Positions 1,531 through 60,540 of a stretch of DNA of 61,904 nucleotides are shown piece by piece. Each line of letters begins with the position of its first letter. Position 1 is the first letter of the stretch. The stretch comes from Blastocatellia bacterium (GTDB lineage: Bacteria > Acidobacteriota > Blastocatellia > RBC074). Below the pieces are notes generated by a model. The model was not told the origin of the DNA, ran no database searches, and saw nothing but the letters and a program-made list of their open reading frames with translations. The position numbers were made by a program, and so were the translations under genes. The stretch covers positions 1 through 61,904 of the forward strand of contig DATEMY010000434.1 in NCBI GenBank assembly GCA_035275345.1, given 5' to 3'.

Positions 1531-1610
1531 AATCAACCACGAAGAAATGAAGGACACGAAGAAGAAACATAATAAAGACCATCGCGCTCTTCGTTTCTTA
1601 GTGGTTGATT
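1531..1610. repeat. Intercistronic inverted repeat (17-nt arms, 1 mismatch) between the HlyD and ATPase genes
   Basis: AATCAACCACGAAGAAA at 1531-1547 pairs with TTTCTTAGTGGTTGATT at 1594-1610. The loop carries further CACGAAGAA words. Confidence 0.6.
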
Positions 1611-1672
1611 TTCATTGTTTCATGGGATTGCCGGGCGACATCAGTTATCCCTCCCGGAATAGAATCCTTGGG

Positions 1673-2833
1673 CTACTTCTCCAGGGTCACATCCGCCGCC
1701 ATTCCCGGCTTCAGCAGCCCTTCGCGGTTGTCAATGCGTACTTTGACGCCGAAGACCAGGTGATTGCGTTCGCTGCGGCTCTGCACGTTGCGCGGAGTGA
1801 ATTCGCCTTGCGTATTGATCTGTTCGATCACGCCGTCGAACGAGCGGTCGGTGAAGGCATCGACTTTGATTTTTGCCTTCTGGCCGACTTTGATCAGACC
1901 GAGCTGCGGTTCAGGGACGAAGATGCGGACGTAAATTTGATCTTTTTCGAGCAGCCGCGCGATGGTCTGGTTGGGCGTGATCAGATCGCCGGGACGAACC
2001 GGCAGGACTTCCACAATGGAGTTCGCGGGCGATTTGACTTCGCCTTCGGCGACCTGGACTTTGATCTCTTCCAGCCTGGCTTTCGCCTCGGCCAGTTGGG
2101 CGCGGGCGTCGGCGATCTCTTCGGCGCGTGGGCCTGCGATGACGAGCCTTTCCGACTCCTGAGCCTGCCGGAAGCGTTCCTCCGCCGCCCGTATATCTTC
2201 TTTTCGGCTGCCGTTGAGCAGGAGGTCCAGACGTTTCTTTTCGGCGTCGCGCTTCGCCCGCGCGTTGTCCAGTCGGAATTTCGCCGCGTCTAATTCCTGT
2301 TGTGAAGTGTCACCTGTCGAGAAGAGCTTGCGGATGCGCTGGAACGACACTTCGGCGTTGTTGACATCGGCCTCGGCGGCGGCCAGCGCGGCGCGAGATT
2401 GTTCGATTTCTTCCGGGCGTGGCCAGTTGCGAACCCCTTCCAGGTTGGCGCGGGCGGTTTCAGTCGCGGCGCTGGCTTGCGCCTTCTCTTCGGGCCTCGA
2501 TCCCCGTTGCAGCCGGTCGAGCCTGGCCTGTTGCTGCGCGACCTTCGCCTCGGCCTGCGATCGCTGCGCTTCCACCCCGGCGATGTCGAAACGGACGATC
2601 GTTTGTCCGGCCTGTGTCTCCTGCCCTTCCAGGACAAGCGCTTCCTTGACTCTTCCTCCCAACTTCGACCCGACGCGAATCTCGCGCGTCTCAATCGTTC
2701 CGGAAAAGAGCAGCGGATCTTCTTTCCTGAATCCGATGCCGCCATTCGCGCAACTGACGCAAAAGATCGCGGCGCAGGCCAGAACCGGCAGGGACGCCCA
2801 GGTCGTCATATTTCTTTTGGCAAGCTTTTTCAT
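1673..2833 (-). CDS. HlyD-family periplasmic adaptor / secretion protein
   Basis: N-terminal signal/lipobox-like segment, a long Ala/Glu/Arg-rich coiled-coil hairpin, and a C-terminal beta-barrel region ([11 protein letters not shown]...[10 protein letters not shown]). First gene of the operon with the ABC ATPase and permease. Confidence 0.9.
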
Positions 2834-2950
2834 AAATGAGTCTCCGGATCAGCCAGTTCACAATGTAAGTAAGCACTTACATATACACGATCACTACGAC
2901 GCGGCGCAAGGCAGCGAGGTTCGAGAGGGCGGGCTGTGGACTTCAAAAGA

Positions 2951-3072
<122 letters not shown>

Positions 3073-3080
3073 TCGATTTT

Positions 3081-5699: not shown

Positions 5700-5713
5700 T
5701 AAGGCGCGAATAA

Positions 5714-9789: not shown

Positions 9790-10058
9790 GGCCGTGATCT
9801 CCTCTTACAAGGCAAAATGTTTGCAGAGCCGGTATTATTGAATCGTGTGAATGCGAGATGGCGCGGAGTATACGAGAGGCTCAGCATGCATGCAAAGGTT
9901 TTGCTCGCTCAACGGGCAGGTTTCATAGACCGCCATAAGTAGATAACAGTTTTTTCAAGGCAAAAGGTCAAAGGTTTGAAAGGCGCCAGGTCCTTTGACC
10001 TTATTGACCCTTTGACCATTTGCGTTAAAAAGTCTCCTCATAGCGAGTGCTCGAAACT

Positions 10059-10296: not shown

Positions 10297-12729
10297 ATGC
10301 GGACCTTATGGCAAGATCTGAGCTACAGCATGCGAATGTCGCTGAAGCAACCCGGCTTCACATTGACCGCTGTGATTACGCTGGCGCTGGGCATCGGAGC
10401 GAACACGGCGATCTTCAGCTTGGTGAACGCCGTGTTGTTGCGCCCCCTGCCTTACCGCGAAGCTGAGCGCATTGTGGCGATTCAGGAACTGGATCCACAG
10501 GGGAATCGAATTCAAGTCACTTCCGCCAACTTCCTCGACTGGCGCGCGCAGAACACGGTCTTCGAGCATCTGGCGGCCATACGGACGCGGCAATCAAATC
10601 TGGCGAATGACGGGCAGGCGGAGCGAATCGAGACGGCGATCGCGTCGGCGAATTTCTTCGAGGTCTTCGGCGCGCGACCGCAGGCGGGACGGCTCTTTAC
10701 GCCGGCCGATGAACAGGCGGGTCACGAGCCGGTGGTGGTCCTCAGCCATAGATTATGGCAGAGGCGATTTGGCGGGGCGGAGAGCGTTATCGGTCAACAA
10801 ATGATCCTTGACGGCGGAAGCTATACGGTCATCGGAGTCGCGCCTGCGGGATTTCGGTATCCGGACAAAACCGAACTGTGGTTCCCGCCGCTGCGACTCG
10901 CCCCGGAAATCAACGCGACCTTCGATGTGACGCAGACTCGCGGCTTCGGCTATCTGAGCGCCGTGGGACGGCTCAAGCCGGCGGTTTCTCTGGAACAGGC
11001 GAAGGCCGAGATGGAGACGATTACCACCCGCTTGCGGAAGCAATACCCGGAGACCAACAACAATCGGTTCAACCGCGTCGTTTCGTTGCAAACGCATCTG
11101 GTCGGCGATACGAAGAGATCGCTCTGGCTGCTGTTCGGCGCGGTCGGTTGTGTGTTGCTGATCGCGTGCGCCAATGTCGCCAATCTTTTGCTGGCTCGGG
11201 CGACGACGCGGCGGCGTGAACTGGCGGTGCGCGCCGCTCTAGGCGCGACGCGCGGGCGGACGCTGCGGCAGTTGTTGACGGAAAGTTTGTCGCTCGCCCT
11301 GGCTGGCGGGCTATTCGGTCTGCTGCTGGCGTGGTGGGGCGTGGATGCCCTGACGCGGTTGCTGCCGGCAGGCTTCCCGCGCCTGGGCGAGATCGCGCTT
11401 GATCTGCCGGCGCTCGGCTTTGCGCTGCTTGCCTCTCTGGCGACGGCGATTATCTTTGGCCTCGCCCCGGCGTGGCAAAGCGCGAAGATTGAACTGCAGG
11501 AAGCGTTGAAAGAGAGCGCGCGGGGCAGCGTCGGGGCGCGGCGCAATCGTCTACGCGGCGCGCTGGTGACCGCTGAGGTCGCCCTGTCGCTGGCGCTGCT
11601 GGTGGGCGCCGGGTTGCTCTTTCGCAGCTTCATGCGGTTACAGGCTGTGAACGCAGGCTTCGACGCAGTGGGCGTATTGACGATGCGGCTAGCGCCTTCG
11701 GGGACGAATTTCCGCGAAGACCCGCAGTACATCGGCTTTTATCAAAAGGTGGGCGAGAAGATCGCCACAATCGCGGGCGTCGAGGCCGTCGGCGCAATCA
11801 ATACGCTTCCCCTTTCGAAAGGCCCGACCTTCGACTTCCGCGTCGAGGGGCAGCCTGAGAAGCCTGTGGACCAGTGGCCCGGCGCGAATTATCGCAACGT
11901 CACCCCGGACTATTTTCGCGTCATGAAGATTCCTATTGCGCAAGGCCGCCCCTTCACCGAACGAGACAACGAGTCAGCCCCGCCGGTCGCGCTCATCAAT
12001 CAAGCCGTCGCCGAGCGCGACTTCGCAGGCCAAAACCCAGTCGGCAAACGCATTAACTTCGGCGGACGGGATCGCAGCGGACAACCTATCTGGCATGAAA
12101 TAGTCGGCGTCGCAGCCAACGTCCGCAATAAGGAGTTGCAGGGCGAAGCCGAGCCGGAGATTTATACCGCCGCCTGGCAGGACGCTTTCGCCGGAATGAC
12201 CTTCGTCATTCGCGCGTCGGTCGACCCCACGACTCTGGCGACTGCCGTGCGGCAAGCCGTGCGCGAGGTCGATCCCGCGCAGCCTGTGTCTGATTTGCGC
12301 GCGATGGAAACCGTCGTCGGGGAAACCATAACGCAGGAGAAGTTAAATTTGACTTTGCTCGGTCTTTTCGGCGGCCTGGCGCTGGCGCTGTCGGCGGCGG
12401 GCATCTACGGCGTGACTTCTTATACCGTGGCGCAATGCTCGCAGGAGATCGGCGTTCGCAAGGCCCTGGGCGCGCAGAACGGCGACGTACTGCGGTTAGT
12501 GATCCGGCAGGGAATGGCGATGGTCATGCGCGGCGTCGCGATCGGGCTGGTCATGGCGCTTGCCGCGACGCGCGTGATGAAGGGATTGCTCTTTGGCGTG
12601 GGTGCGACTGACCCGCTGACGTTTTCAATGATTGCGCTGTTGTTGATCTCGGTCGCTTTGCTAGCCTGCTGGATTCCGGCCCGACGGGCGTCGAATGTGG
12701 ACCCGATGGTCGCTCTCAGATACGAATAG
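10297..12729 (+). CDS. ADOP-family duplicated MacB/FtsX-type permease
   Basis: MRTLWQDLSYSMRM signature, duplicated FtsX halves and a [19 protein letters not shown] tail. Confidence 0.95.
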   Translation: MRTLWQDLSYSMRMSLKQPGFTLTAVITLALGIGANTAIFSLVNAVLLRPLPYREAERIVAIQELDPQGNRIQVTSANFLDWRAQNTVFEHLAAIRTRQSNLANDGQAERIETAIASANFFEVFGARPQAGRLFTPADEQAGHEPVVVLSHRLWQRRFGGAESVIGQQMILDGGSYTVIGVAPAGFRYPDKTELWFPPLRLAPEINATFDVTQTRGFGYLSAVGRLKPAVSLEQAKAEMETITTRLRKQYPETNNNRFNRVVSLQTHLVGDTKRSLWLLFGAVGCVLLIACANVANLLLARATTRRRELAVRAALGATRGRTLRQLLTESLSLALAGGLFGLLLAWWGVDALTRLLPAGFPRLGEIALDLPALGFALLASLATAIIFGLAPAWQSAKIELQEALKESARGSVGARRNRLRGALVTAEVALSLALLVGAGLLFRSFMRLQAVNAGFDAVGVLTMRLAPSGTNFREDPQYIGFYQKVGEKIATIAGVEAVGAINTLPLSKGPTFDFRVEGQPEKPVDQWPGANYRNVTPDYFRVMKIPIAQGRPFTERDNESAPPVALINQAVAERDFAGQNPVGKRINFGGRDRSGQPIWHEIVGVAANVRNKELQGEAEPEIYTAAWQDAFAGMTFVIRASVDPTTLATAVRQAVREVDPAQPVSDLRAMETVVGETITQEKLNLTLLGLFGGLALALSAAGIYGVTSYTVAQCSQEIGVRKALGAQNGDVLRLVIRQGMAMVMRGVAIGLVMALAATRVMKGLLFGVGATDPLTFSMIALLLISVALLACWIPARRASNVDPMVALRYE

Positions 12730-12862
12730 GTGTCAGGTGTCAGGTGTCAGGTGTCAGGTGTCAGGTGTCAGGTGTCAGGTGTCAGGTGTCAGGTGTCAGG
12801 TTGGAATCTCCAGCGTCATTCATTTCCTGAAACCTGAAACCTGACACCTGACACCTGACACC
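12729..12862. repeat. Heptamer-array hairpin: 10 x GGTGTCA facing 5 x TGA(A/C)ACC
   Basis: Perfect tandem GGTGTCA at 12729-12798, starting inside the stop codon. The complementary heptamers lie at 12828-12862 and end 16 nt before the next ADOP start. Confidence 0.9.
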
Positions 12863-12878
12863 TTCTCCAGGAGGAACT

Positions 12879-15305
<2,427 letters not shown>

Positions 15306-15401
15306 CTTTTCCTCGCTAAGCTATACGAAGGCTCACATAGATGCGAAATGACCTTCGTGATGTTTCGTGTGGCTTCGTGGATGAATCTCAGTGGAGGAAC
15401 A

Positions 15402-17828: not shown

Positions 17829-17875
17829 TCGCTTTGCGCTGAGTCGGTCGGCGATCCTGCCGCCGTCCGGGGGCG

Positions 17876-17937
17876 GTGCTAAAAAAATAGCATTTTGAGC
17901 TTGACCGCTTTCAGAGATGGTGCTAAATTTTTAGCAC
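17876..17937 (+). promoter_or_regulatory. Candidate promoter with two palindromic operators upstream of the BlaI-like repressor gene
   Basis: Perfect palindrome GTGCTAAATTTTTAGCAC at 17920-17937 overlaps a TAAATT -10 (17924-17929), which lies 17 nt after TTGACC (17901-17906). A second, imperfect copy GTGCTAAAAAAATAGCAT lies at 17876-17893. Confidence 0.55.
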
Positions 17938-17998
17938 GCTGGCGCCGAACGGGTGTCGCGCTTCCTGAGAGATCATCACATTTTGCGAGGAACCGCAG

Positions 17999-21874: not shown

Positions 21875-21897
21875 GATGCAGGGCGAATGATCCGATA

Positions 21898-21958
21898 TTT
21901 TTCTGTCTCCTATTTTTCTGTCTGGTCAGAGCTGACAGAAAAATAAGAGACAGAAAAA
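21898..21958. repeat. Inverted repeat (25-nt arms, 1 mismatch) built from a 14-nt word
   Basis: TTTTTCTGTCTCCTATTTTTCTGTC at 21898-21922 pairs with GACAGAAAAATAAGAGACAGAAAAA at 21934-21958. Confidence 0.85.
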
Positions 21959-22030
21959 TGAGAGACAGAGTTAGGACTGCATCTGGATGGGAAACTTCCG
22001 AAATTTTCCACTACTTTCAAGGAGGCGAAG

Positions 22031-23029: not shown

Positions 23030-23046
23030 TCGCACGAACCGCCAAA

Positions 23047-23125
23047 GAAGCCAAAAGGGCCAGAAGGGCAAAAAGAACAAAATAGCTCTATTTTGTTCTT
23101 TTTGCCCTTCTGGCCCTTTTGCTTC
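23047..23125. terminator. Long near-perfect hairpin between convergent genes (candidate bidirectional terminator)
   Basis: GAAGCCAAAAGGGCCAGAAGGGCAAAAAGAACAAAATAG at 23047-23085 pairs with CTATTTTGTTCTTTTTGCCCTTCTGGCCCTTTTGCTTC at 23088-23125, with one bulged base. The arm has 9-nt periodic words. Confidence 0.7.
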
Positions 23126-23163
23126 TACTTTGCTTCCTTATTGCTCAATGGAGAGATCGCAGG

Positions 23164-25282: not shown

Positions 25283-27724
25283 ATGAGCGCATTGATTCAA
25301 GACTTCCGTTATGGCCTCCGCTGTCTTTGGCGTAATCCTGGATTTACGACTATCGCCGTGCTTTCGTTGTCGCTCGGGATCGGCGCAAACACTGCGATTT
25401 TCAGTTTGATCAATACGGTCTTACTACGGCCTTTGCCGTACCAAGAACCTGAGCGACTGGTGATGGTCTGGGAGGACGCGTCGTTCGCGGGGTTTCCGCA
25501 AAACACGCCCGCGCCGGCGAATTACGCCGATTGGAAGGCGCAGAATCAAACCTTCGAGGATATGGCGGCGCTTGCCCAGAGGAGTTTCAACCTGACCGGA
25601 GACGGCGAGCCGGAGAGGGTGGACGCTTATGCGGTGACAGCCAATTTCTTCCCGATACTGGGCGTCAAGCCCGCGCTCGGCCGCTCCTTCCTGGCCGATG
25701 AAGACCAACCCGGCGGGAATAATGCGGTCATGCTCAGCTACAGACTGTGGCAGCATAGGTATGGCGGCGAACGCGACATTATCGGAAGAGAGCTCCTGCT
25801 CAACGGCGAGAAATACAGCGTCGTCGGAGTGGCGCCCGCCGGATTTCAATTCATGGAAAGCGAGATCGGTCTTTGGGTTCCGGTAAGATTCACTCAACAG
25901 GAACTCGCCAACCGCGGCGGTCATTATTTGTGGGTTGTTGGGCGGATGAAACCCGGCGTGACCTTGGAAAAGGCGAATGCGGACATCAAGACGGTTATGA
26001 GCCGCATCGTGCGCGACAATCCGGGCAATGCGGGAAGGTTCGACGCCTATGTGATGTCAATGCGCGATCAGCTGGCCGGCGGTTCAAGACGGCCGTTGAT
26101 CGTGTTGCTGGTCGCGGTCGGATTCGTATTGCTGATCGCCTGCGCGAACATCGCAAACCTGCTGCTCGCGCGCGCAGTCAACCGAGGTCGCGAAATCGCC
26201 GTCCGCAGCGCGCTAGGAGCGGGAAGACTTCGGATCGTGCGCCAACTTCTTACAGAGAGCGTACTGCTATCGTTCGCCGGAGCGGCGGTCGGATTGCTGT
26301 TTGCCTCATGGAGCTTCAGCCTCCTGCAACGACTCATCCCCGAGGGTCTCGCGCTTTCGACGAGCCTCAACATCGACCTGAAGGTCCTGGGCTTCACGCT
26401 GATTGTCACGCTGGGCTCCGGGGTGGTCTTCGGTTTGGCTCCCGCCCTTCATGCCTCGAAGATTGATTTAAACGACGCGTTGAAGCAGAGCGGCGCCAGA
26501 GTGGGTTCGAGCGGCGGCGCCAACAGGCTGCGTAACGCTTTGGTCGTAGTCGAGGTCGCATTGTCGCTGGTGCTGCTGGTTGGCGCGGGGTTGCTAATTC
26601 AAACGTTCTTCAAGATGCTGAATCAATACTCCGGTCTTCGGCCTGAAAACGTTCTGCTAATGAGAACCAACCTGCCGCGAAGCAAATATGGCGATCCCCC
26701 GAAACGCAACGCCTTTTATGATCAGACGCTCGAGCGTCTGAAGAGCCTGCCGGGCGTGGTTTCCGTGGGATACACGATGAGCGTGCCGTTGGACTGGAAG
26801 GGCGGGACGAGCGGGTTCTGGATCGAGGGGCGCACTGTTGAACAGGCCGTCTCGCAAGGCCTGTCGTACGACGCCAACCACCGGCAGGTCAGCGCCGCTT
26901 ACCTGCAAACGATGGGCATCCCGCTCCGGCGTGGCCGATTCTTCGGCGAAAGCGACAACGAGAAATCAATGCCGGCGGCGATCATCAACGAAACGATGGC
27001 GAGACAATACTGGCCGGGCGAAGACGCGGTCGGAAAGCGGTTCAAGCTCGGCGATCCCAACTCGCCTGTTCCCTGGATAACGGTCGTCGGCGTCGTCGCC
27101 GATGTCAGGCAGATGGGAATGGACGCGGCGGTCAAAGCCGAAATGTATTTGCCTTACCGCCAGATGACGACTCACTCATTCTTCGCGCCGCGCGATCTGG
27201 TCATCCGCGCCTCAGTTGACCCAATGAGCCTCGTCGCCTCGGCTCGGCGCGAAATTCATGCCATTGACCCGGATCAACCGGTCTCGAACATCCGCACGAT
27301 GGAAGGTGTGTTGGACGAGGAGATAGGCCAGCGCCGTATGGGGATGACGCTGGTCGCGGCATTCGCTGGACTGGCCGTACTGCTCGCGTCGCTCGGGATT
27401 TACGGCGTTCTTTCGTATTTCGTTGTTCAACACACGCGGGAAATCGGCGTACGGCTGGCGTTGGGCGCGCAGCGCCGCAACATCCTTGGGCTGGTGATTA
27501 AGAAGGGGATGACGCTGGCTCTGATTGGCGTCTCGATCGGGCTGGCCGCCGCATTCGCTTTGACCAGGTTGATCTCGAGCCTGCTTTATGAAGTCAAAGC
27601 GGCTGATCCCTTAACCTTCACTGTAGTCGCGGCGATGCTGACAGTCGTGGCGTTGCTGGCTTGTTACATACCGGCGCGGCGAGCGATGAAGACGCTTCCG
27701 ATGGTGGCTTTGAGATGCGAATAG
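25283..27724 (+). CDS. ADOP-family duplicated MacB/FtsX-type permease
   Basis: SALIQDFRYGLRCLWRNPGFT signature, duplicated FtsX halves and a YIPARRAMKTLPMVALRCE tail. Confidence 0.95.
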   Translation: MSALIQDFRYGLRCLWRNPGFTTIAVLSLSLGIGANTAIFSLINTVLLRPLPYQEPERLVMVWEDASFAGFPQNTPAPANYADWKAQNQTFEDMAALAQRSFNLTGDGEPERVDAYAVTANFFPILGVKPALGRSFLADEDQPGGNNAVMLSYRLWQHRYGGERDIIGRELLLNGEKYSVVGVAPAGFQFMESEIGLWVPVRFTQQELANRGGHYLWVVGRMKPGVTLEKANADIKTVMSRIVRDNPGNAGRFDAYVMSMRDQLAGGSRRPLIVLLVAVGFVLLIACANIANLLLARAVNRGREIAVRSALGAGRLRIVRQLLTESVLLSFAGAAVGLLFASWSFSLLQRLIPEGLALSTSLNIDLKVLGFTLIVTLGSGVVFGLAPALHASKIDLNDALKQSGARVGSSGGANRLRNALVVVEVALSLVLLVGAGLLIQTFFKMLNQYSGLRPENVLLMRTNLPRSKYGDPPKRNAFYDQTLERLKSLPGVVSVGYTMSVPLDWKGGTSGFWIEGRTVEQAVSQGLSYDANHRQVSAAYLQTMGIPLRRGRFFGESDNEKSMPAAIINETMARQYWPGEDAVGKRFKLGDPNSPVPWITVVGVVADVRQMGMDAAVKAEMYLPYRQMTTHSFFAPRDLVIRASVDPMSLVASARREIHAIDPDQPVSNIRTMEGVLDEEIGQRRMGMTLVAAFAGLAVLLASLGIYGVLSYFVVQHTREIGVRLALGAQRRNILGLVIKKGMTLALIGVSIGLAAAFALTRLISSLLYEVKAADPLTFTVVAAMLTVVALLACYIPARRAMKTLPMVALRCE

Positions 27725-27857
27725 GTTTCAGGTGTCAGGTTTCAGGTGTCAGGTTTCAGGTGTCAGGTTCCAGGTTTCAAGAAAAGAATGTCGCCGCGGA
27801 TTACAACCTGAAACCTGACACCTGAAACCTGACACCTGGAACCTGACACCTGACACC
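27724..27857. repeat. Heptamer-array hairpin: 8 x GGT(T/G)TCA facing 7 x TG(A/G)(A/C)ACC
   Basis: Alternating GGTTTCA/GGTGTCA at 27724-27779. The complementary heptamers lie at 27809-27857. Same word family and same genic context as 12729-12862. Confidence 0.9.
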
Positions 27858-27873
27858 TTCTTCGGGAGGAATT

Positions 27874-37238: not shown

Positions 37239-37429
37239 CCGCCTTAAGGCCAATGGCATTAAGGTAGGACAAGAACATTGCCCATTGCCAATTTCACATT
37301 GCCCATTGTTTTGCAGCGAGGTCTATCCCGAACTCTTCTCCCTGCAAATCAATTGGCAATGGGCGATGCGAAATGGTCAAGGAAATCCGGCCCCCTAGGC
37401 TTAACTTAACGCCATTGGCCTTAAGGCGG
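37239..37429. repeat. Nested long-range inverted repeat (outer 19-nt perfect arms, inner 18-nt arms)
   Basis: Outer arms: CCGCCTTAAGGCCAATGGC at 37239-37257 pairs with GCCATTGGCCTTAAGGCGG at 37411-37429. Inner arms: CATTGCCCATTGCCAATT at 37276-37293 pairs with AATTGGCAATGGGCGATG at 37351-37368. Confidence 0.8.
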
Positions 37430-39924: not shown

Positions 39925-39934
39925 CGCGCAGATA

Positions 39935-39995
39935 TTTTCCTGTCTTCCATTTTCCTGTCGGCGGAAAGCGGACGGGAAAATGGAAGACGGGAAAA
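39935..39995. repeat. Inverted repeat (25-nt arms with T/C differences that allow G-U pairs) built from a 14-nt word
   Basis: TTTTCCTGTCTTCCATTTTCCTGTC at 39935-39959 pairs with GACGGGAAAATGGAAGACGGGAAAA at 39971-39995. The word resembles the one at 21898-21958. Confidence 0.8.
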
Positions 39996-40011
39996 TAAGG
40001 AGCTGACCGTA

Positions 40012-43140: not shown

Positions 43141-43240
43141 ACAGCGCTTCAGCTTAAGGCGGCTTCCGGCTGGTTCAGGGAAGCGACACGGTCGGTTTTA
43201 GACCGTGGCCTCCCTGAACTGCCGTAGGGCCGAACGGGGC

Positions 43241-44342: not shown

Positions 44343-44876
44343 CTACTCCTCCGATCTCCCGGCCCCTTCAACCTTAAGCTTGGGAATGGTGATCTGAAGA
44401 ATCCCGCTGACAAATTTATTTTTCATTCTTTCCGGCTGGACATTACTGGGCAGTGGAAAGAGCCGTTCGAAACTGCCGTAGGCGCGTTCCGAACTGTGAT
44501 AGGCGCTATCCTCACTCGCTTTTTTGAAACGCCGCATCCCGCGGATTGTGAGGATGTTGTTGGTCTGGGTCACCTTGACGTCTTCCTGTCCCAGCCCAGG
44601 CAACTCCAAATTGATCAGGTAGGCGTCCTGAGTCTCGCAAACCTCCGCCGCCGGCGTCCAGGCGGGGGACTTCGACAATCGCCACGAGATGCCGCTGTTA
44701 ATCAAGCACATGTTCAGTTGATCGATTTCACTTTGAACCAGCGTTACGGGATTGATTCCCTTAGGCAATGGATAGCGGGGTTTTTTTATATCAATCTCCG
44801 GAGCCGGAAGCCCGGTCATTTGCTCGAAGACATCTTTGACATCCGTCAGAACCTGGTCATAAGAGTACATCCTCAT
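44343..44876 (-). CDS. Hsp20/alpha-crystallin family small heat-shock protein with a conserved ~85-aa N-terminal extension (cassette 1)
   Basis: Alpha-crystallin domain AWTPAAEVCETQDAYLINLELPGLGQEDVKVTQTNNILTIRG...ERAYGSFERLFPLPSNV...GILQITIPK. The start is set at MRMYSY (GGAGAG ribosome-binding site, agrees with the paralog) rather than the track start at 44897. Confidence 0.9.
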   Translation of the reverse strand: MRMYSYDQVLTDVKDVFEQMTGLPAPEIDIKKPRYPLPKGINPVTLVQSEIDQLNMCLINSGISWRLSKSPAWTPAAEVCETQDAYLINLELPGLGQEDVKVTQTNNILTIRGMRRFKKASEDSAYHSSERAYGSFERLFPLPSNVQPERMKNKFVSGILQITIPKLKVEGAGRSEE

Positions 44877-45299
44877 AAGCTCTCTCCGTATTTTCATTTT
44901 TTCTTCGTTAGTATCTCAACCGGCTCGCACGAATGTACGGCGAATCGGTTCGTTCGCCGCGGGGCTTTCGTAAGTCTGATCGCGACAGCGCGCCGAAGCG
45001 GCTCGCCAGGCGATGATATGCGATTGGCCTTGATTATTGATCATAGGCGCTCTTGTTCGCGCCTTGCACAGGCGTAAGTATCAGCATTTCCTGTTCCTAA
45101 TTCGGAGATCAGCGAGGTTCTCAAGCAAAATTGCCCTAAATTCGGAGAAATAAGTAATCACAACGCAATGTCAATACATACGGATCGCGGCGCGAGGGCT
45201 AAGCGTTTGTTTGCTGTGATGGGAAGGGGTACGGCGATGTTTTAAGGAACGTTTTGCCGACATACAACCACTGTATGGCGGATGTTCATTCGATGATCG

Positions 45300-45744: not shown

Positions 45745-46755
45745 TCATCTCATTGCGAAATGCCCGCCAGGCGCCAAGCGGGGGATCATGACTCGGAAAT
45801 CGAGAAAATTCCGCGGCGGCTCGTGTTTGACCAGCGCCGCCATGCCGGATGTCAATCGCCCGGAGAGCATCAGATCGGAGAGCGGAAACACCAGGTGGTT
45901 TCTAACCGCGCGCTTGATCTGCCGCGCCCTATGCGTCGGATCGTTCAGGCACTGCCTGAGCAAAAAGGATTTCGCCCCCTCCTCGATCCTGAAGCCGATG
46001 CCCGATGAGGCCAGCTTTCGAGCTATCTCGGATAGTTTGCGTTCCAGCAGCGTGATCACGTTCTGCTCGTTGAGGCGCTCAAAAATCACGATCTCGTCAA
46101 TGCGGTTGACGAGAGTGGCGCCTAACAGGTTATCAATCTCTTCCATTAACACCAAGTGCTCCCGCGGCGCCTCCTGGGCGTCGCTCTCATCATCACTAAA
46201 AAAGCCTATGGTTCTGCCTACCAACTGATCAGTCTGCTTCTTTGACAGGTCGCTGGTCAGAATGATGAAAGTGTTGCGGAGTGAAAACATGCAGCCAAGC
46301 GAGTAGAGAACTCCGCGGTCAATCGCTGCGGCCAGATAATCGCGAAAGACGGGCGGCGCCTTCTCAATCTTCTCGAACGCCAGTATGGAGAAAGGAAAAG
46401 GGGTGAACGGAGGGGTTATTTGGGAAAGCATGCTTCCGGCCATCAACTGTTCGTGTAAGCTCGACTCCGCGTATAAGTTCGACTGCGAGTTCGAATGTTT
46501 ACTGAGGATTTGGCAATTGACATAGATCAATTTTCGATCGTCGCCGAGCAGAACTCGGGCGAGCGCTTTAGCGACATGCATTTTGCCCGAATTTGTTGGT
46601 CCTGCGAACAGGAGCGTTGCGAGCGGGTTGTTGGAATTGGAGTTGCGCCCATCGGCCAGAGCCAGCGTAACAGCTCTTGCTAAAGCCGCCACAGCATACT
46701 CGCGCCCTACCATTTGCTCCTGAAGAGCCTGCATTAGATGACTTGAAAAGACCAT
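45745..46755 (-). CDS. Single-domain ClpA/ClpB D2-like AAA+ protein with non-canonical Walker motifs (cassette 2)
   Basis: Paralog of 42121-43140: FAGPTNSGKMHVAKALA, ILAFEKIEKA, NTFIILTSDL, LVNRIDEIVIF. The start is set at MVFSS by alignment with the paralog. The 14-codon extension in the track starts at a TTG. Confidence 0.8.
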   Translation of the reverse strand: MVFSSHLMQALQEQMVGREYAVAALARAVTLALADGRNSNSNNPLATLLFAGPTNSGKMHVAKALARVLLGDDRKLIYVNCQILSKHSNSQSNLYAESSLHEQLMAGSMLSQITPPFTPFPFSILAFEKIEKAPPVFRDYLAAAIDRGVLYSLGCMFSLRNTFIILTSDLSKKQTDQLVGRTIGFFSDDESDAQEAPREHLVLMEEIDNLLGATLVNRIDEIVIFERLNEQNVITLLERKLSEIARKLASSGIGFRIEEGAKSFLLRQCLNDPTHRARQIKRAVRNHLVFPLSDLMLSGRLTSGMAALVKHEPPRNFLDFRVMIPRLAPGGHFAMR

Positions 46756-46973
46756 TTCATACGCCGTTTCTCCAGCGGAGGTTGGTGGATCGTTCAATCC
46801 AAGCCTATCGGCCCAAGCCTATCGCCGCCGCGCATAGGTTGGGCGAGAACGATCCACCGGCCATCGCCGGAGGGATTAAGGGAGGCTGAAGGCCCAGGCC
46901 CTCAGCCTCTCGTCACAAGTCTCCACAGGCTAGACCGTGTGTTCTCCCTGAGCCGCTGGGAAGCGCGGCGCGC

Positions 46974-48246: not shown

Positions 48247-48780
48247 TTAATCCTCTGACCTTCCTGTCCCATTAGCCTTGGCCTTGGGGATGATGATCTG
48301 AAGGATTCCATTGATAAATTTATATTTCATCCTCTCAGGTTGGGTATTGCTCGGTAGTGGAAAGAGCCGCTCGAACGCCCCGTAGATGCGCTCTGAGCTG
48401 TGATAGACGGCCTCTTCAGTCACTTTCTTGAAACGCCGCGCGCCGCGCACCGTGAGTATGTTATTGGCTTGTGTAACCTTGACATCTTCCTGGCCCAGTC
48501 CAGGCAGTTCCAGATTGACCGTATAAGCGTCCTGGGTCTCGTATATTTCCGAGGCCGGCGCCCACGCGGGCGACTTCGCCAACCGAGACGAGATGCCGCT
48601 GTTGATCAGGCACATATTGAGCTGATTGATTTCGCTCTGTACCAGCGTTATCGGATTGACCCCCTTAGGCAGTGGGTAACGTGGTCTTTTGATGTCGATC
48701 TCCGGAGCCGGAAGACCGGTGAGCTGCTCATACACATCTTTGGCGTCTGTTAAAACCTGGTCATAAGAATACATTCTCAT
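48247..48780 (-). CDS. Hsp20/alpha-crystallin family small heat-shock protein (cassette 2)
   Basis: Close paralog of 44343-44876: AWAPASEIYETQDAYTVNLELPGLGQEDVKVTQANNILTVRG...ERIYGAFERLFPLP. GGAGGG ribosome-binding site. Confidence 0.9.
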   Translation of the reverse strand: MRMYSYDQVLTDAKDVYEQLTGLPAPEIDIKRPRYPLPKGVNPITLVQSEINQLNMCLINSGISSRLAKSPAWAPASEIYETQDAYTVNLELPGLGQEDVKVTQANNILTVRGARRFKKVTEEAVYHSSERIYGAFERLFPLPSNTQPERMKYKFINGILQIIIPKAKANGTGRSED

Positions 48781-49268
48781 AAGCCCTCCAATATTTCATT
48801 TTCGATTCTTCGTCAGAATCCCAACCGGCCCGCGCGAATATGCTGCGAATCGGTTAATCGGCAGCAAGTTTTCGTGAGTCTGATCACACGTCAGCTATGA
48901 ATAGACTCGCTCACTATAGCTTGCGATGGCATACGCCCATCATTGAGGATCGTTGTTTGAAACATCAACGATCGGTTTATATTATTTTTTTGTAGACGCC
49001 ATTGACCTACCGCTTTACCTAATCGGAATTCCTCGCATTTCCCGTTCCTCTATTCGAAGATGGGCAAATAAACTCGAAGAGCCAAGTGATCACAACGGCT
49101 TGTCAATTCAATCGGAAAAAAGCGCGGATAAGTCGGTTGATGACATCGAAGGAAAAGGATACGACGATGATGTAAAAAGGTAATGTTGAAACTAGACACA
49201 CTGCGAGGCAAGTTCATTCAATCATCGATCGCCTTAATGTAGCGAGAAAAATGGGCGCCTCGATTGCA

Positions 49269-49323
49269 ATGAGACGGAAGGATGAGACAGGGGAAATGAG
49301 ACAGAGGAAATGAGACAGGGGAA
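49269..49323. repeat. Tandem direct repeat, 4 units of ATGAGAC(A/G)G(G/A)GGAA (13-14 nt)
   Basis: ATGAGACGGAAGG / ATGAGACAGGGGAA / ATGAGACAGAGGAA / ATGAGACAGGGGAA. The word is related to the arms of the hairpins at 21898 and 39935, but no complementary arm lies nearby. Confidence 0.8.
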
Positions 49324-49373
49324 ATCCGATATAAAAAGTTGTGATAAAATTTGTGAATGCATAAGCCGATTGC

Positions 49374-49538: not shown

Positions 49539-49604
49539 CCGCTCCTTTGAGATTCTCGCCTTCCAATCGCCATGCGAAACAAAATGAAAACCTCTGGGGA
49601 AGTT

Positions 49605-49641
49605 ATGAATGGGACTTATAAGTCTTATAAGTCCCATTCAT
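49605..49641. repeat. Perfect 18-nt-arm palindrome just upstream of the cystathionine synthase-like gene
   Basis: ATGAATGGGACTTATAAG t CTTATAAGTCCCATTCAT. It contains CTTATAAGT twice in tandem. Confidence 0.85.
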
Positions 49642-49673
49642 AAGGCTCACGAGAATTTTCGGAGGAAACAGCG

Positions 49674-50834: not shown

Positions 50835-50903
50835 TAGTGAGCAGTGGGCAGTGTGCAGTGGGCAGTGAAGAGATCAAAGCCGCCCACTGCCCACCGCCCA
50901 CTT
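50835..50903. repeat. Heptamer-array imperfect hairpin (GCAGTGG words facing (C/T)GCCCAC words)
   Basis: GCAGTGG GCAGTGT GCAGTGG GCAGTGA at 50841-50868. CGCCCAC TGCCCAC CGCCCAC at 50881-50901. Confidence 0.7.
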
Positions 50904-50925
50904 ATTGTGGGAGGAAAGTTCAACC

Positions 50926-52101: not shown

Positions 52102-52246
52102 CCGTGGCGCCTAACTAATGAGGTCGAAGAGAGATTACGGAACAAACGGAAATAACGGGACAGACTGAAAAAAACGAAAATCGTCAGTCTGTTCCGTTAT
52201 TTCCGTAATCTCTCTTCGACCTGGTCTGACTCTCTCCACGGTTAAG
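52097..52246. repeat. Nested long inverted repeat overlapping the stop codon of the preceding gene
   Basis: Outer arms: CTTAACCGTGG at 52097-52107 pairs with CCACGGTTAAG at 52236-52246. Inner arms: AGGTCGAAGAGAGATTACGGAA...ACAGACTGA at 52121-52168 pairs with TCAGTCTGTTCCGTTATTTCCGTAATCTCTCTTCGACCT at 52184-52222. The left arm carries one extra CAAACGGAA word. Confidence 0.8.
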
Positions 52247-53003: not shown

Positions 53004-53750
53004 ATGAGAAACATGAAGATAATCAATAATAAAGTAATGATCCCCCAGGAGGTTCCACGAGTTTGCCGGCATGGACTGCTCGACACGCTGCGGGAAAACC
53101 TCAATTCCTGCCAGGCGACGGTCATTAATGGACGCGCTGGAACGGGTAAAACCATGCTGGCTGCTGATTTCGTCCGGCGCCATAAGGGGAGTGTGGCCTG
53201 GTATAAGGTGGATGCGCCGGATATTAGCCTTTCGGTTTTTATGGAGTATCTGGTGGCTAGTGTGGCCTGTGTGCGCCCCGGATTCGGTAGCGAAGCTCTG
53301 GCCAGCCAGTTGCAAATATCTGGCGAATTCAATATTCCCGCGCTGGCGGAAGCTTATGTCTACGATCTTGAGAGTTGGGCGGAACCTTTGATTCTGGTAA
53401 TTGACGACTTGCATTTAATCTATGACGCCGAATGGTTGGTCCCTTTCTTCCATCGGCTGCTCCCACTGATGCCGGCTGATATACACATGGTGATCCTTGG
53501 CCGAGGGATGCCGCCCACGCCACTGTGGCGGCTGCGCTCCAAGCAACGACTGTTCGTGATTACCGAACAGATGCTGGCATTTACACAGCCGGAGGCGGAG
53601 GAACTGTTTTTGGGCTACGGACTCGGCGCGGAGGATGCGAGTTTTGCTCTTAAGCAAACCGGCGGGCGCGCCGCCGATTTGCATGAGGCGGCGATCCGCG
53701 CCAGCGCGTCTCTTACGACAGCCGGCGCGACATGTGTGCTAAACTGCTGA
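53004..53750 (+). CDS. Stand-alone N-terminal P-loop module paralogous to the start of the downstream STAND regulator (possibly a truncated gene)
   Basis: VINGRAGTGKTMLAADFVRRHKGSVAWYKVD...LILVIDDLHLI parallels LVTASAGAGKTTLVADFVRAHAPRFVWYQLD...LVIVLDDYHHL in 54042-57389. It ends after 248 aa. Confidence 0.6.
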   Translation: MRNMKIINNKVMIPQEVPRVCRHGLLDTLRENLNSCQATVINGRAGTGKTMLAADFVRRHKGSVAWYKVDAPDISLSVFMEYLVASVACVRPGFGSEALASQLQISGEFNIPALAEAYVYDLESWAEPLILVIDDLHLIYDAEWLVPFFHRLLPLMPADIHMVILGRGMPPTPLWRLRSKQRLFVITEQMLAFTQPEAEELFLGYGLGAEDASFALKQTGGRAADLHEAAIRASASLTTAGATCVLNC

Positions 53751-54041
53751 AACTTATAAGTTTGTATGCTAGACTGCTGAATCTTGTAAACTGCCCCGCT
53801 CAAGAATTCCTATTTTTCGACTGTGGCTTTGTGCGGCGCCAACCCATCTTTTCGGCTGTGGCTTTATGCGGCGCCGGCCGTCGTCGAAGTCAACCATATA
53901 ACTGTCATCGTTGCCCTGACGACTAATATTTCCTTGCGTGACGAGCAACCCCACCTGCCCAAACGCACTGTGATCGGATGGTAAATCATTCCGGGTAACG
54001 ACTACCCTCAATGCTTGAATTAGATTGAGAGGCTACGGCCA

Positions 54042-57389: not shown

Positions 57390-57455
57390 CTCAGCGATGT
57401 AAATCCCAGAATATAAACGCAGCGCTACAGCAAATTTTTTATTGGAGGTTCCCTT

Positions 57456-60437
57456 ATGAGGGCATACACACTCAGCAAGAAAGCGAATCGGACACTCGTT
57501 CTGGCATTAATTGTCGTGATCGCAGTCGGTTCAGCCAGCGCCGGTCTGCTCATTAAATCAGCCAGCATTACAGGCAGCGGTATCTTCAACACTCAGACGA
57601 ACGGGATTACCTACCAGGGACCTTCCGGGATTGTCGCCACCGGCATAGACGGACTTCTGACTTTTCTCCCGAACAACATAACGGCGCCAACGAGTTCTGG
57701 AATAGTCGCGACGGGCATTGACGGCCTAACTTACTCCGGCGCCAACGGCATTGTCGCGACCGGCATTGACGGCCTTACTTTCAATCAGGGTTCGGGGATA
57801 GTCGCGACTGGGATAGACGCGCTGACGATTACGAGTGGGAACAATAGTTACCAGGTGGATTCAGTCTTTATACATCAGGCTAATGGCATCGTAGCTACCG
57901 GTATCGATAACCTCAATATAATTGGCTCCAACGGCATTGTCGCAACCGGGATTGATAGCCGCGAGATCGCATTTGCCAACGGCCTCAATGCTGCGGGAAT
58001 TGACGGGATAACGATTAACGGCGCCAGTGGCATTGTCGCGACCGGGATCGACGGCCAGACCTTTTCGATCTCGCCGAACGGGTTAACAATTAGCGGAGCC
58101 AGTGGAATAGTCGCGACTGGCATCGACGGCCTCAGCTTCAGCGGCGCCAATGGCATCGTCGCGACCGGCATCGACGACGGAACGATGCCCAGCCTGTTAG
58201 GGCTGCTGAGCCTCGATCCTGAGCTGGCGGCGCTGCTGGATCGTCTGACCGATGACAGCAACGTCAACGCCGCCGTGGTCTATCACAGCTACCCGACCAA
58301 CGACGATATTGATGATCTGCGACAGATCGGAGTGCTTCTGGGCCAGCGTTATCGAGTCCTGCCAGTGGTTTCGGTGACTACGACCAAGGCGAAGCTCATG
58401 CAGATTTCGCGCCTGCGGGGGGTCCGCTCGATATACAGCAATCGCACGCTGAAACTGCTCGGGGAGCCGGGCAACGGATTGACCGGCACGGAGAGGGTGA
58501 AGACGGACGCGGATCTGACTGCGGCCAATGGAGGTCAGACGGTCACTGGCCGCAACGTTACGGTGGCCGTACTCGACACTGGGCTGGACTCCACGCACGG
58601 AGACATTGCGGGACGCGTCGTGAAGAACGTCAAGCTCGTTGGTCTGGCGGGTCTGGGCGTCAACTTCAACTATCCGATCAGCGAAGTGGGGTTGCCGAAC
58701 ACTGATCTCGTTTCCGGACACGGCACATTCGTCGGTGGAGTGATCGCCGGCAACGGCGCGCGCTCGGGCGGCAGATACACCGGCGTTGCGCCTGGGGCCA
58801 AATTGGTCGGGCTGAGCGCGGGCGACGCCACTCTGCTCTCAATTATCGAAGGGTTTGATTATCTGCTCTGGAAAAGGCAGGAACTCGGCGTGCGAGTCGT
58901 CAATTGCAGCTTCTCCGCCGATACGCTCTACGACTCGAACGATCCGGTCAATGTGGCCACCAAGATGCTCACCGACCAAGGCGTCAGCGTGGTCTTCTCG
59001 GCTGGCAACAACGGCCCGGGCGCCGACACGCTCAATCCTTACGCGATGGCGCCGTGGGTGATCAGCGTCGGGGCGACGGATGAAGAAGGTAAGTTGGCCG
59101 ACTTCTCCTCGCTCGGCTCTTTTACTAAGTTGAGCGGTCCGTCGCTTGTCGCGCCGGGCGTCAACGTCGTCAGCCTGCGCGCCAGTGGCGTCAGCCTGAA
59201 CGGGTTGCTCAATCTCGGCCTCGGAGGCGACCTCTCGCGACTGTCGACAGAGGATCTACTCAATTACACCGTCGGCAGCGGCACCAGCTTTTCAGCGCCG
59301 CAGGTGGCAGGAACAATAGCGATGATGCTCGACGTCAATCCGTCGCTCATGCCGGCTCAGATAAAAGACATCCTGCAGCGCACCGCCACGCCGATGACGC
59401 AATATTACCGCTATGAGGTCGGCGCAGGGATGCTCAACGCGCACGCGGCCGTGCTCGAAGCGGCTTTCCCGCAGCGCCGGATGGGAATGTTCCGCGCTTC
59501 GCTCGACCGCGGACAGGCGCGCTTCGTCAACGACCCGCTTCGGACGTTCTCCGGGACAGTGCCGCTGGGGTTGCTCGGCCTACTCGGCTCCTACACGGCC
59601 AATTTCAATATCCCAGAGAACACTTTGGTGGCCTCAGTGCAGATCGCATGGGGGCCGGAGACATCCATTAACGACCTGTCTTTGCAATTGATCGATCCTG
59701 GCGGCATGGCGCGACCCGTAGTAAATACGCTCAACCTGCCGGTCTTGACCGGGCGCCGCGAGCGCGACCTGATCAAGAATCCGATACCGGGAACGTGGCG
59801 CGCCAAGGTGCAGCACACTATTATCGGCACGCCACAAGCGTTCATAGGCACGGTTGAGAATACGCGCGCCGAATACCAGCCGCTTACTGACATCAGCGGT
59901 TTGTCCATGTTGGCGCGATCTGAAGTTCTACAGAATCTGCGATCGTTCATGATTGCGCCACTCGGCAATAACTTTCGTCCCAATTTCACCATCTCGCGTT
60001 TTGAGCTGGCTTCGGCGCTGGTGTTCGGCGGACGCGTGCCTCAGTATCTGGCCGGACAGCCGCGCTTCACCGACGCGACTGACCAGGCGACGAGGATCAT
60101 GGTTGAGAGCGCCCAAGCGGCGCCGGGCGGGCCGTTGTTCACTGACGCGTCGCCGGGTGGGCTTTTCCGTCCGGATGACCGCGCCGCCAGGCTCACGGCG
60201 GCGATTGCCCTGGTGCGCGCCGCTGGATTACGGTCTGAAGCGGAATCGAAAGCCGGTATCTCGCTGCCGGTGAGCGACGCGTATGCGATTCCTTCCAGCT
60301 TGCGCGGTTACGTCTGGGTCGCGCTCAATCGCGGGCTGATGAGCGCCGATGGCGGAGTCTTTCGCCCCAACAGCGCAATGAATCGCGTCGAACTCGCGCA
60401 CGCGATGGTCGGAATCGCCAGACTGGCCATACAGTGA
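57456..60437 (+). CDS. Secreted subtilisin-family (S8) serine protease with N-terminal GIVATGID repeats and C-terminal SLH-like modules
   Basis: Signal peptide. Nine exact GIVATGID units plus one degenerate unit. Catalytic motifs VAVLDTGLD, SGHGTFVGG and GSGTSFSAPQVAG. Three C-terminal F(R)PN..(I/M).R.ELA.A(L/M)V segments. Confidence 0.88.
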   Translation: MRAYTLSKKANRTLVLALIVVIAVGSASAGLLIKSASITGSGIFNTQTNGITYQGPSGIVATGIDGLLTFLPNNITAPTSSGIVATGIDGLTYSGANGIVATGIDGLTFNQGSGIVATGIDALTITSGNNSYQVDSVFIHQANGIVATGIDNLNIIGSNGIVATGIDSREIAFANGLNAAGIDGITINGASGIVATGIDGQTFSISPNGLTISGASGIVATGIDGLSFSGANGIVATGIDDGTMPSLLGLLSLDPELAALLDRLTDDSNVNAAVVYHSYPTNDDIDDLRQIGVLLGQRYRVLPVVSVTTTKAKLMQISRLRGVRSIYSNRTLKLLGEPGNGLTGTERVKTDADLTAANGGQTVTGRNVTVAVLDTGLDSTHGDIAGRVVKNVKLVGLAGLGVNFNYPISEVGLPNTDLVSGHGTFVGGVIAGNGARSGGRYTGVAPGAKLVGLSAGDATLLSIIEGFDYLLWKRQELGVRVVNCSFSADTLYDSNDPVNVATKMLTDQGVSVVFSAGNNGPGADTLNPYAMAPWVISVGATDEEGKLADFSSLGSFTKLSGPSLVAPGVNVVSLRASGVSLNGLLNLGLGGDLSRLSTEDLLNYTVGSGTSFSAPQVAGTIAMMLDVNPSLMPAQIKDILQRTATPMTQYYRYEVGAGMLNAHAAVLEAAFPQRRMGMFRASLDRGQARFVNDPLRTFSGTVPLGLLGLLGSYTANFNIPENTLVASVQIAWGPETSINDLSLQLIDPGGMARPVVNTLNLPVLTGRRERDLIKNPIPGTWRAKVQHTIIGTPQAFIGTVENTRAEYQPLTDISGLSMLARSEVLQNLRSFMIAPLGNNFRPNFTISRFELASALVFGGRVPQYLAGQPRFTDATDQATRIMVESAQAAPGGPLFTDASPGGLFRPDDRAARLTAAIALVRAAGLRSEAESKAGISLPVSDAYAIPSSLRGYVWVALNRGLMSADGGVFRPNSAMNRVELAHAMVGIARLAIQ

Positions 60438-60443
60438 GGAATT

Positions 60444-60540
60444 GGTAGTGGGTAGTGGGCATTGGGTAGTGGGCAGTGGGGAATAGGGAATGATTTCTTT
60501 TCCTGATTTCCCACTACCCACTGCCCAATGCCCACTACCC
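60444..60540. terminator. Heptamer-array hairpin between convergent genes (candidate bidirectional terminator)
   Basis: GGTAGTG GGTAGTG GGCATTG GGTAGTG GGCAGTG at 60444-60478 faces CACTACC CACTGCC CAATGCC CACTACC at 60512-60539. The 31-nt arms have 2 mismatches caused by swapped units. Confidence 0.7.

Follow-up and report, generated by a model that had tools for sequence, protein, structure and literature searches.

Short-Tandem-Repeat Palindromes in the Intergenic Spacers of a Blastocatellia Bacterium

Results

The intergenic spacers of a Blastocatellia bacterium were analyzed along a stretch of 61,904 nt (contig DATEMY010000434.1, referred to below as the window) in which a first-pass annotation had listed 13 sites with strong inverted repeats (S1–S13). 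Probably, although far from certainly, the sites are members of a population of short-tandem-repeat palindromes that extends across the genome, with transcript punctuation as the most likely role. In close relatives the elements are replaced, and not merely mutated, at a fixed slot that extends from the stop codon of one gene to the Shine–Dalgarno (SD) sequence of the next, and the order of the two arms is fixed regardless of the word family from which they are built. Overall, these elements make up ~17% of the non-coding DNA of the window.

The nearest relatives of the organism are metagenome-assembled genomes (MAGs) of the Blastocatellia/Blastocatellales (92–95% protein identity in one marker gene), and a 77-kb contig from a soil or rhizosphere metagenome matches the window. 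Eight ADOP duplicated permeases (TIGR03434) are encoded in the window and are named A1–A8. Three syntenic loci with coding DNA that is 80–86% identical to the window (L003, L004, and L005) were used for junction comparisons, and the window together with 80 related loci (1.29 Mb) yielded an acidobacterial set of 168 strong hairpins.

Hairpins and Internal Periodicity

All 13 listed inverted repeats are present and far exceed chance expectation (table 1). Their arms are 20–54 nt long and 81–100% complementary, with folding energies of -33 to -109 kcal/mol. Of the 31 intergenic regions that reach a length of 30 nt, about 13–15 contain an exceptionally stable hairpin (z mostly -5 to -23 relative to shuffled sequences), and the survey of these regions added hairpins that were missing from the list at 43160–43232, 17872–17940, and 46770–46872. 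A further unlisted hairpin is located at ~15318–15385.

The annotation had described each arm as internally repetitive. A comparison with 1000 dinucleotide shuffles of each arm, in which tandem arrays were also identified with Tandem Repeats Finder, indicates strong periodicity in S4, S5, S7, S9, S11, S13, and the inner S8 hairpin and marginal periodicity in S2 (the observed value is matched by 32 and 60 of 1000 shuffles) and S6, but none in S1, S3, S10, and the outer arms of S8 and S12. The periodicity is therefore real, yet covers roughly two-thirds of the listed sites. Within the acidobacterial set, 36 of the 168 hairpins have periodic arms compared with 3.1 expected, mostly with periods of 7, 9, and 14 nt and in a few cases of 8 and 10 nt. 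The annotation had named periodicity no more common than in shuffled intergenic sequence as a refuting outcome, and this excess speaks against that outcome.

Shared Words and Copy Number

[quoted passage not shown] Neither view can be upheld. The first fails because the sites hold common words, which fall into ~eight families within the window: AGGTKTC is common to S4 and S7, AGTGGGY to S11 and S13, TTTYCTGTCTYC to S5, S9, and a lone array (49268–49325), and CACGAAK to S1, S2, and a decayed copy in the A4–A5 spacer. The words are furthermore multi-copy, and orthologous sites gain them, lose them, or exchange one for another. Other families of the window recur in related loci: the GGTCAAAGG-type word of S3 also builds a hairpin 3' of PLP2 in L003, the CATTGCC word of the inner S8 hairpin is found in L078, and the S12 family is present in L026 (2261–2369). 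A 30-nt direct repeat (1.9 copies, 53733–53789) located 5' of a MalT/AfsR-like regulator gene includes AACTTATAAGTT, which is also the palindromic word in S10 and in the L005 hairpin.

Copy number was assessed in the contigs of one public run that holds the strain (~8x depth) by comparing the depth summed over the arms with the depth of the flanks. The arms exceed the flanks at S1 (~1345 vs 8.4), S2 (27–69 vs 8), S4 (600–1965 vs 9), S5 (245 vs 8.3), S11 (~50 vs ~8), S12 (842 vs 8), and S13 (55–123), with a maximum ratio of ~230x in the source metagenome. S6 (~17 vs 8) is essentially single-copy and the sole such case among the sites tested. Extra contigs, many of them at ~8x depth, join the same arms through different loops: four further ~8x copies of S5 have identical arms and other loops, and at least five other ~8x contigs carry the arrays of S13 with different loops. 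We infer that these contigs are other copies within one and the same genome. The Logan short-read contigs of the source run stop at several of the hairpins (50860–50871, 52150–52192, and 12713–12891).

Replacement at Orthologous and Paralogous Junctions

The spacer between the PLP1 and PLP2 genes contains a strong hairpin in the window and in L003, L004, and L005, and these hairpins are built from four different words: AGTGGGC heptamers in the window, GGGAGTA-type heptamers in L003, CACGAAG every 10 nt in L004 (the word of S1 and S2), and CCTATAAGT 9-mers in L005 (the word of S10). The same exchange of hairpin words is seen among the four genomes in the spacers behind PLP2 and behind ADOP A8, and L004 carries an unrelated 45-bp hairpin at the position of S9. 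The exchanged stretch extends from 0–5 nt past the stop codon to ~5–8 nt before the SD sequence, and both the stop codon and the segment from SD to ATG are homologous. At the PLP1–PLP2 junction of L010 and L026 there is a bare SD spacer of 23–29 nt without a hairpin. The position of S10 is empty in L003 and L004 and is occupied by a different 30-bp palindrome in L005. The elements are thus insertions of 60–190 nt that are present, absent, or swapped for another family at the same junction.

A comparable pattern is found among the paralogous junctions within the window. Between the spacers that contain S4 and S7, with the SD spacer included, identity is 86%, although the eight ADOP paralogs share only ~61% nucleotide and 45% amino acid identity, which indicates that the junction patch is younger than the gene duplication. 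A segmental duplication was rejected as the cause of the S4/S7 likeness since the higher identity is confined to the junction patch. The eight paralogs are located within 37 kb (3309–39924) and are all about equally diverged, so that the family expanded long ago and did not arise by recent tandem duplication. Taken together, the junction comparisons show that the elements are inserted, lost, copied, and replaced and are not vertically inherited terminators.

The proposal of the annotation that the arrays grow by slippage is supported by the unequal arms of S4 (10.6 vs 5.4 units) and by unit numbers that differ between orthologues. The comparison of orthologous spacers for such variation, which the annotation had suggested, uncovered hairpins whose units differ in number and in order (L023 vs L054, L029 vs L054). 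Selection for pairing, the second part of that proposal, agrees with the finding that pairing is kept through compensatory double changes (3 of 31 and 6 of 29 pairs in the orthologous and paralogous hairpin sets) and that the loops vary freely.

Taxonomic Breadth and Arm Polarity

Tandem-word hairpins are found throughout the loci of Blastocatellia, Pyrinomonadaceae, and Thermoanaerobaculia, and several words recur between genomes (CACAGAG, CACAAAAAG, CACAGAT, AAGGACnnn, GTGAATG, GATGAGT, and AGATTKC). Classic REP-like families are located alongside them in related loci. An exact search for (AGGTGTC)x3 in the JGI metagenomes returned at least 120 loci, 80 of which were checked for composition (GC 0.33–0.71). 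IMG/VR contigs (L203–L261; GC 0.33–0.74), which are predicted to be viral with no distinction between true phage and host fragment, contain AGGTGTC and AGTGGGY arrays and some hairpins. Overall, the same architecture is carried by contigs of 33–74% GC.

The orientation of the arms is biased in these samples. Of the metagenome matches listed for AGGTGTC that have an inverted partner, 59 carry it downstream of the G-rich array and 3 upstream. The corresponding counts on the viral contigs are 6 versus 1 for AGGTGTC and 9 versus 1 for AGTGGGY, so that the purine/G-rich array forms the 5' arm in 74 versus 5 of the listed matches when the two heptamer families are pooled. About half of the metagenome and viral arrays among these matches have no inverted partner. 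Within the acidobacterial set, the purine-rich arm is the 5' arm in 103 versus 57 hairpins (p = 3e-4) and in 27 versus 7 of the periodic ones. Strand bias and stability cannot explain this polarity, since a palindrome looks the same from either strand and an exchange of the arms leaves the duplex unchanged.

The AGGTGTC arrays among the listed metagenome matches often neighbor arrays of other heptamers or are nested with them. Different heptamer or 9-mer arrays are adjacent or form a hairpin within a hairpin in L128, L092, L113, L089, L093, L151, and L155, and in L128 the AGGTGTC arms enclose inner arms of CAGAGGA/CAGATGT. With respect to the composition of the heptamer units in the window and L003–L082, CAG/CTG is the commonest trinucleotide class (34 of 79 units compared with ~20% expected). 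A rule of "CAG + 4 nt" was dropped because these counts amount to an enrichment only. The cyanobacterial STRR units CCCCAGT and CAACAGT contain CAG, and so does the reverse complement of the Beggiatoaceae heptamer TAACTGA (both systems are introduced in the Discussion).

Position Relative to Genes

The annotation had placed the sites between convergent and co-directional genes. This is borne out, except that S2 (2949), S3 (9952), and S10 (49600) are located between divergent genes. Based on crude open reading frame (ORF)-based gene calls, which make the numbers approximate, there are 1.00 hairpins per kb of intergenic DNA in co-directional regions, 0.96 in convergent regions, and 0.38 in divergent regions, and within co-directional spacers the hairpin is nearer to the upstream stop codon (median 24 nt, compared with 64.5 nt to the next start codon; 57 vs 20 cases). 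S4 and S7 both begin within a TAG stop codon; for S4 this is the stop codon of ADOP A3, and 15 nt separate the end of the hairpin from the A4 ATG.

The hairpins differ from consensus terminators. The absence of a clear U-tract noted in the annotation is confirmed, with at least six T in 8 nt at 4 of 78 sense and 3 of 78 antisense ends. Matches to the terminator consensus are not above shuffled expectation in the window, and the 13 sites are free of them. In L004 (9856–9890), a canonical intrinsic terminator is located 5' of PLP1 (AACCCCGCGC...GCGCGGGGTT and then the T-tract TTTTTTATTTT), showing that the lineage also uses ordinary terminators.

Several known types of element were considered. 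No Rfam family matched anywhere in the window at the gathering threshold, and scans of the window for tRNA and tmRNA genes found nothing. An inspection of the flanks found the GTAG/CGTC end tag of REP sequences at S13 only (1 of 13 sites, starting with GTAG), where it lies within the repeat unit. Integron attC sites were rejected since the arm ends have no GTTRRRY core and the neighboring genes are 2.4-kb ADOP permeases and not cassettes, and CRISPR-type direct repeats with spacers were rejected as well. By inspection, AGGTGTC, CACGAAT, CATTGCC, and TTTCTGTCTC do not have the four G-tracts needed for a G-quadruplex (G4), and only the AGTGGGY and the L003 GGGAGTA-type arrays have them.

Table 1. 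Hairpins and related arrays in the window (positions in nt; x, number of units)
Feature	Position	Strand	Description
S1	1518..1621		CACGAAG-word hairpin in the spacer of a HlyD-like gene and an ABC ATPase gene, co-directional on the minus strand; arms not significantly periodic
S2	2949..3074		Divergent spacer; 44-nt loop between 41-nt arms that are 98% complementary; CACGAAT with a 10-nt period
S3	9952..10031		Divergent spacer; GGTCAAAGG-type words; weak, non-significant periodicity
S4	12728..12863		(AGGTGTC)x10.6, loop, (GACACCT/GAAACCT)x5.4; periodicity reached by 0/1000 shuffles
Decayed CACGAA-type hairpin	15318..15385		A4–A5 spacer; 3' arm TTCGTG x3; period 10 at 15353–15379
S5	21888..21969		15-mer ATTTTTCTGTCTCCT x2 and inverse; spacer of two co-directional paralogous genes
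S6	23046..23126		Perfect 34-bp palindrome, 2-nt loop; purine-rich 9-nt words, period 9 marginal; convergent genes
S7	27723..27858		14-mer (AGGTTTCAGGTGTC)x4 and inverse; ADOP A6/A7 spacer; stop-codon and SD junctions as in S4
S8	37239..37429		Nested; outer 35-nt arms non-periodic, inner hairpin (37276–37380) with CATTGCC heptamers
S9	39933..39997		15-mer ATTTTCCTGTCTTCC x2 and inverse; 8 nt 3' of the ADOP A8 stop codon; SD 1 nt beyond the hairpin
Unlisted hairpin	43160..43232		29 bp, non-periodic; co-directional spacer on the minus strand; z = -11.3
Lone 14-mer array	49268..49325	-	No inverted partner; reverse complement belongs to the TGTCTC words, as do S5 and S9
S10	49600..49646		Perfect 20-bp palindrome with CTTATAAGT at the apex; non-periodic; divergent, 30 nt 5' of the PLP1 start
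S11	50836..50902		AGTGRGC heptamers and inverse; fills the spacer from the PLP1 stop codon to the PLP2 SD
S12	52115..52228		31-nt outer arms, inner ACGGAAnnn 9-mers; convergent region 3' of PLP2; high-copy family
S13	60441..60549		AGTGGGY heptamers x5 and inverse; convergent genes

Other Features of the Window

The first ATG called for ADOP A5 (15348) is probably wrong, since GGAGGAACAATGCAGATCCTCTGGCAAG with an ATG near 15403 (window 15306–15420) fits the SD sequence and the MQxLWQ N-terminus of the paralogs. With the start moved to ~15403, the TTCGTG x3 stretch of the called N-terminus becomes the 3' arm of the decayed CACGAA hairpin in a spacer of 97 nt. Three consecutive genes, encoding the C-terminus of a BlaR1-like protein and two 332-aa paralogs, contain an 87-nt (29-aa) tandem repeat (20377–20650, 21557–21747, and 22763–23015), and the BlaR1-like gene also contains a G-rich 36-nt coding repeat (19713–19824). 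Two HSP20 genes and two genes for short AAA_2/ClpB_D2-small proteins are located at 42121–43140, 45745–46797 and 44343–44897, 48247–48780; for the second AAA_2/ClpB_D2-small protein, the identification comes from the encoding contig's gene table. These pairs look like a duplicated module of a small heat-shock protein and a ClpB C-terminal protein.

Discussion

The annotation did not recognize the architecture as a described class, but hairpins of short tandemly repeated repetitive (STRR) sequences (PMC2670836) and inverted GGGAATC arrays in Xanthomonas (PMC4692102) have been published. That the elements in the window are the Blastocatellia counterpart of both is well supported. Xanthomonas campestris and X. 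axonopodis contain 186 GGGAATC arrays per genome, ~70–75 pairs of which are in "convergent orientation" (Rehm et al. 2015, PMC4692102). The arrays are mostly located between aligned ORFs, are rare between divergent ORFs, are transcribed, and flank different genes in different species, and the authors read them as G-quadruplexes (PMC4692102). The window shares with them intergenic tandem heptamers, a G-rich array as the 5' arm, the placement relative to stop codons (PMC4692102), the avoidance of divergent ORFs, and the lack of conservation at the same genes between species. It differs in having ~eight families in place of a single G-rich one, several of them without G4 ability, in its words of 7, 9–10, and 14–15 nt, and in its acidobacterial host.

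PMC2670836, which cites Mazel 1990 among others, describes STRR sequences as 7-bp repeats able to form hairpins and "not unusual in filamentous cyanobacteria"; the spacer between hupS and hupL is one example. Their function is given there as unknown, with roles in stability, translational coupling, or termination proposed. Paired G-rich arrays are few in Nostoc PCC 7120 (PMC4692102). The likeness lies in several dispersed heptamer families, in hairpins within the intercistronic spacers of co-transcribed genes, and in the functions proposed. Tandem units, dispersed copies, proximity to stop codons, rarity between divergent genes, and G-rich-first pairs are all found in the present analysis. STRR sequences, in contrast, come from filamentous, low-GC cyanobacteria and usually consist of heptamers only.

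REP sequences have a GTAG or CGTC tag and stems of 5–13 bp without internal tandem words, and the GTAG type is linked to RAYT genes (PMC3733652, PMC3116915). Like REP, BIME, and REPIN elements, the hairpins of the window are high-copy intergenic palindromes mostly downstream of genes, and the REP-type elements are likewise transcribed, have compensatory stems, and form long hairpins as inverted doublets (PMC3733652, PMC3116915). The window differs by the rarity of the tag, stems of 20–54 bp, arms made of word arrays, and the lack of a RAYT gene. The heptamer TAACTGA of marine Beggiatoaceae forms direct arrays just 5' of start codons with one inverted case in 170 sets (PMC4679880). It shares the intergenic location, a patchy phylogenetic distribution, and a spreading mechanism that is not known, but, unlike the repeats in the window, it forms no hairpins (PMC4679880).

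Intrinsic terminators resemble the elements as stable stem-loops 3' of a gene, and differ in that the elements have no U-tract, have stems that are several times longer, and occur in operon-like spacers right before the SD sequence. MITEs such as Correia/NEMIS, ERIC, and RUP are associated with target-site duplications, a cognate transposase family, and few families per genome. The elements of the window are, like MITEs, short, non-coding, and multi-copy, with terminal inverted repeats and filled and empty sites, but no duplications are found at the junctions compared and there are many word families. Literature searches returned no description of such elements in Acidobacteria, and no earlier statement that arm polarity follows one rule in different families or that elements are replaced at a given site. 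What is newly seen here is the Blastocatellia host and the co-existence of several word families and lengths. Most of the words lack G4 ability.

Each element combines tandem copies of a word of 7, 9/10, or 14/15 nt with a free loop and the same array in inverted form. The arrays would lengthen and shorten through replication slippage, and the complementarity of the arms would be upheld by selection on the hairpin, by arm-to-arm templated repair, or by both. Words would travel between sites through short-patch copying and not through a sequence-specific transposase, and the copying would take place between narrow spacers in which the elements are tolerated. Once co-transcribed with the upstream gene, an element would fold into a stem of 20–50 bp without a U-tract. 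The likeliest effect would be that of a 3'-exonuclease barrier or an RNase III-type processing site between cistrons or that of a roadblock between convergent genes. The G-rich-first order may persist because a C-rich arm that is transcribed first would be naked RNA, exposed for example to Rho. It is in the functional part and in the explanation of the polarity that we infer rather than observe, and a role in RNA stability or processing is plausible.

A number of observations weigh against this account. One-sided changes to G.U and to A.C do not differ significantly (46 vs 36, p = 0.32), nor does folding stability between sense and antisense strands (45 vs 31, p = 0.075). The compensatory changes together with these null strand tests indicate that pairing is maintained, and selection at the RNA level is not demonstrated by them. 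A search for RNA runs that hold the strain found none, with metatranscriptome runs sharing only ~6–7% of words. S2, S3, and S10 lie in divergent regions, where 3' ends are unexpected, and many relatives have no hairpin at the same junctions, which indicates that the elements are not essential. With respect to the copying mechanism, there is no transposase or RAYT gene in the 62-kb window and no target-site duplication at the PLP1–PLP2 boundaries of the four genomes when compared with the empty sites of L010 and L026. Furthermore, equal contig depth is the sole basis on which the extra copies are assigned to the same genome, and the Rho account of the polarity is speculation.

Part of this evidence is shared by a competing explanation, in which the hairpins are selected RNA elements that each junction needs (U-tract-independent terminators, 3'-end stabilizers, or RNase III sites) and turnover reflects selection on structure alone. 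Such elements would be expected directly behind stop codons and just before SD sequences, depleted in divergent regions (0.38 per kb), and altered by compensatory changes, as is observed. Some hairpin is present in the PLP1–PLP2 and post-PLP2 spacers of all four close genomes, the window has no excess of canonical terminator-like sites, and the two G.U pairs of S9 are found on the sense strand only. The null results of both strand tests (p = 0.32 and p = 0.075), the empty sites in relatives, the copies in divergent regions, and the canonical GC-stem and T-tract terminator of L004 argue in the opposite direction, and the recurrence of words across the genome and between genomes and the fixed arm order are left unexplained. 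We regard selection on RNA structure alone as possible, but not probable. Non-autonomous mobility of the MITE or REPIN type, with the arms as terminal inverted repeats that contain sub-terminal repeats and a transposase located elsewhere, for example of the Y1 RAYT/TIRYT type that Acidobacteria encode (PMC3733652), appears rather less likely. Multi-copy families with conserved arms and variable loops, the polymorphism of filled and empty sites, an arm order that is constant within a family, and tolerance mainly at the 3' ends of genes, as for REPs, are all consistent with it. It is at odds with well-defined boundaries that lack a target-site duplication, with the absence of a transposase within 62 kb, with the GTAG tag at only 1 of 13 sites, and with the lone, partnerless direct arrays that make up about half of the listed matches elsewhere. 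Recognition would be required separately for at least eight word families that are unrelated, and descent of one family does not explain a polarity that is common to unrelated families.

Arrays of binding sites (iteron-like, for a nucleoid protein, or for heptamer-binding proteins of the cold-shock type) or non-B DNA such as G-quadruplexes of the Xanthomonas kind could account for the conservation of particular words across genomes and for the regular spacing of 7 or 9–10 nt, and the GGG tracts in the AGTGGGY and L003 GGGAGTA-type arrays could form G4 structures (PMC4692102). The many unrelated words within one genome, the inability of AGGTGTC, CACGAAT, and TTTCTGTCTC to form G4, arms that co-vary for pairing and not for a motif, and the takeover of the hairpin at the same site by an unrelated word make this a very improbable explanation. 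That assembly artefacts at palindromic or repetitive sequence produced the elements is hardly credible: Logan contigs do break at hairpins, but the same elements are present in independent assemblies (an ENA contig and a Logan contig), and like elements with a consistent placement relative to genes are found in JGI and IMG/VR contigs and in many MAGs from GenBank, among them contigs of several megabases and assemblies at chromosome level.

A wider version of the punctuation hypothesis would treat polar tandem-word palindromes as one general class across Acidobacteriota, xanthomonads, cyanobacteria, many uncultured bacteria, and some phage contigs, with a common array-generating and copying process and with arm order and stop-to-SD placement as an RNA-level rule, for example one that hides the C-rich arm from Rho. 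This generalization is considered unlikely at present.

For the annotation of acidobacterial MAGs, the hairpins should be allowed for, since assemblies from short reads break at them and start-codon predictions are displaced by them. The words that are unable to form G4 behave like those that are capable of it, which argues against G4 as a general explanation. STRR sequences were reportedly described in 1990, and the questions that have stood since then, of how heptamer-type arrays arise and spread and what they do, are now more testable: the replacement at the stop-to-SD slot, the family-independent arm order, and the non-G4 words that act like G4 words provide testable handles.

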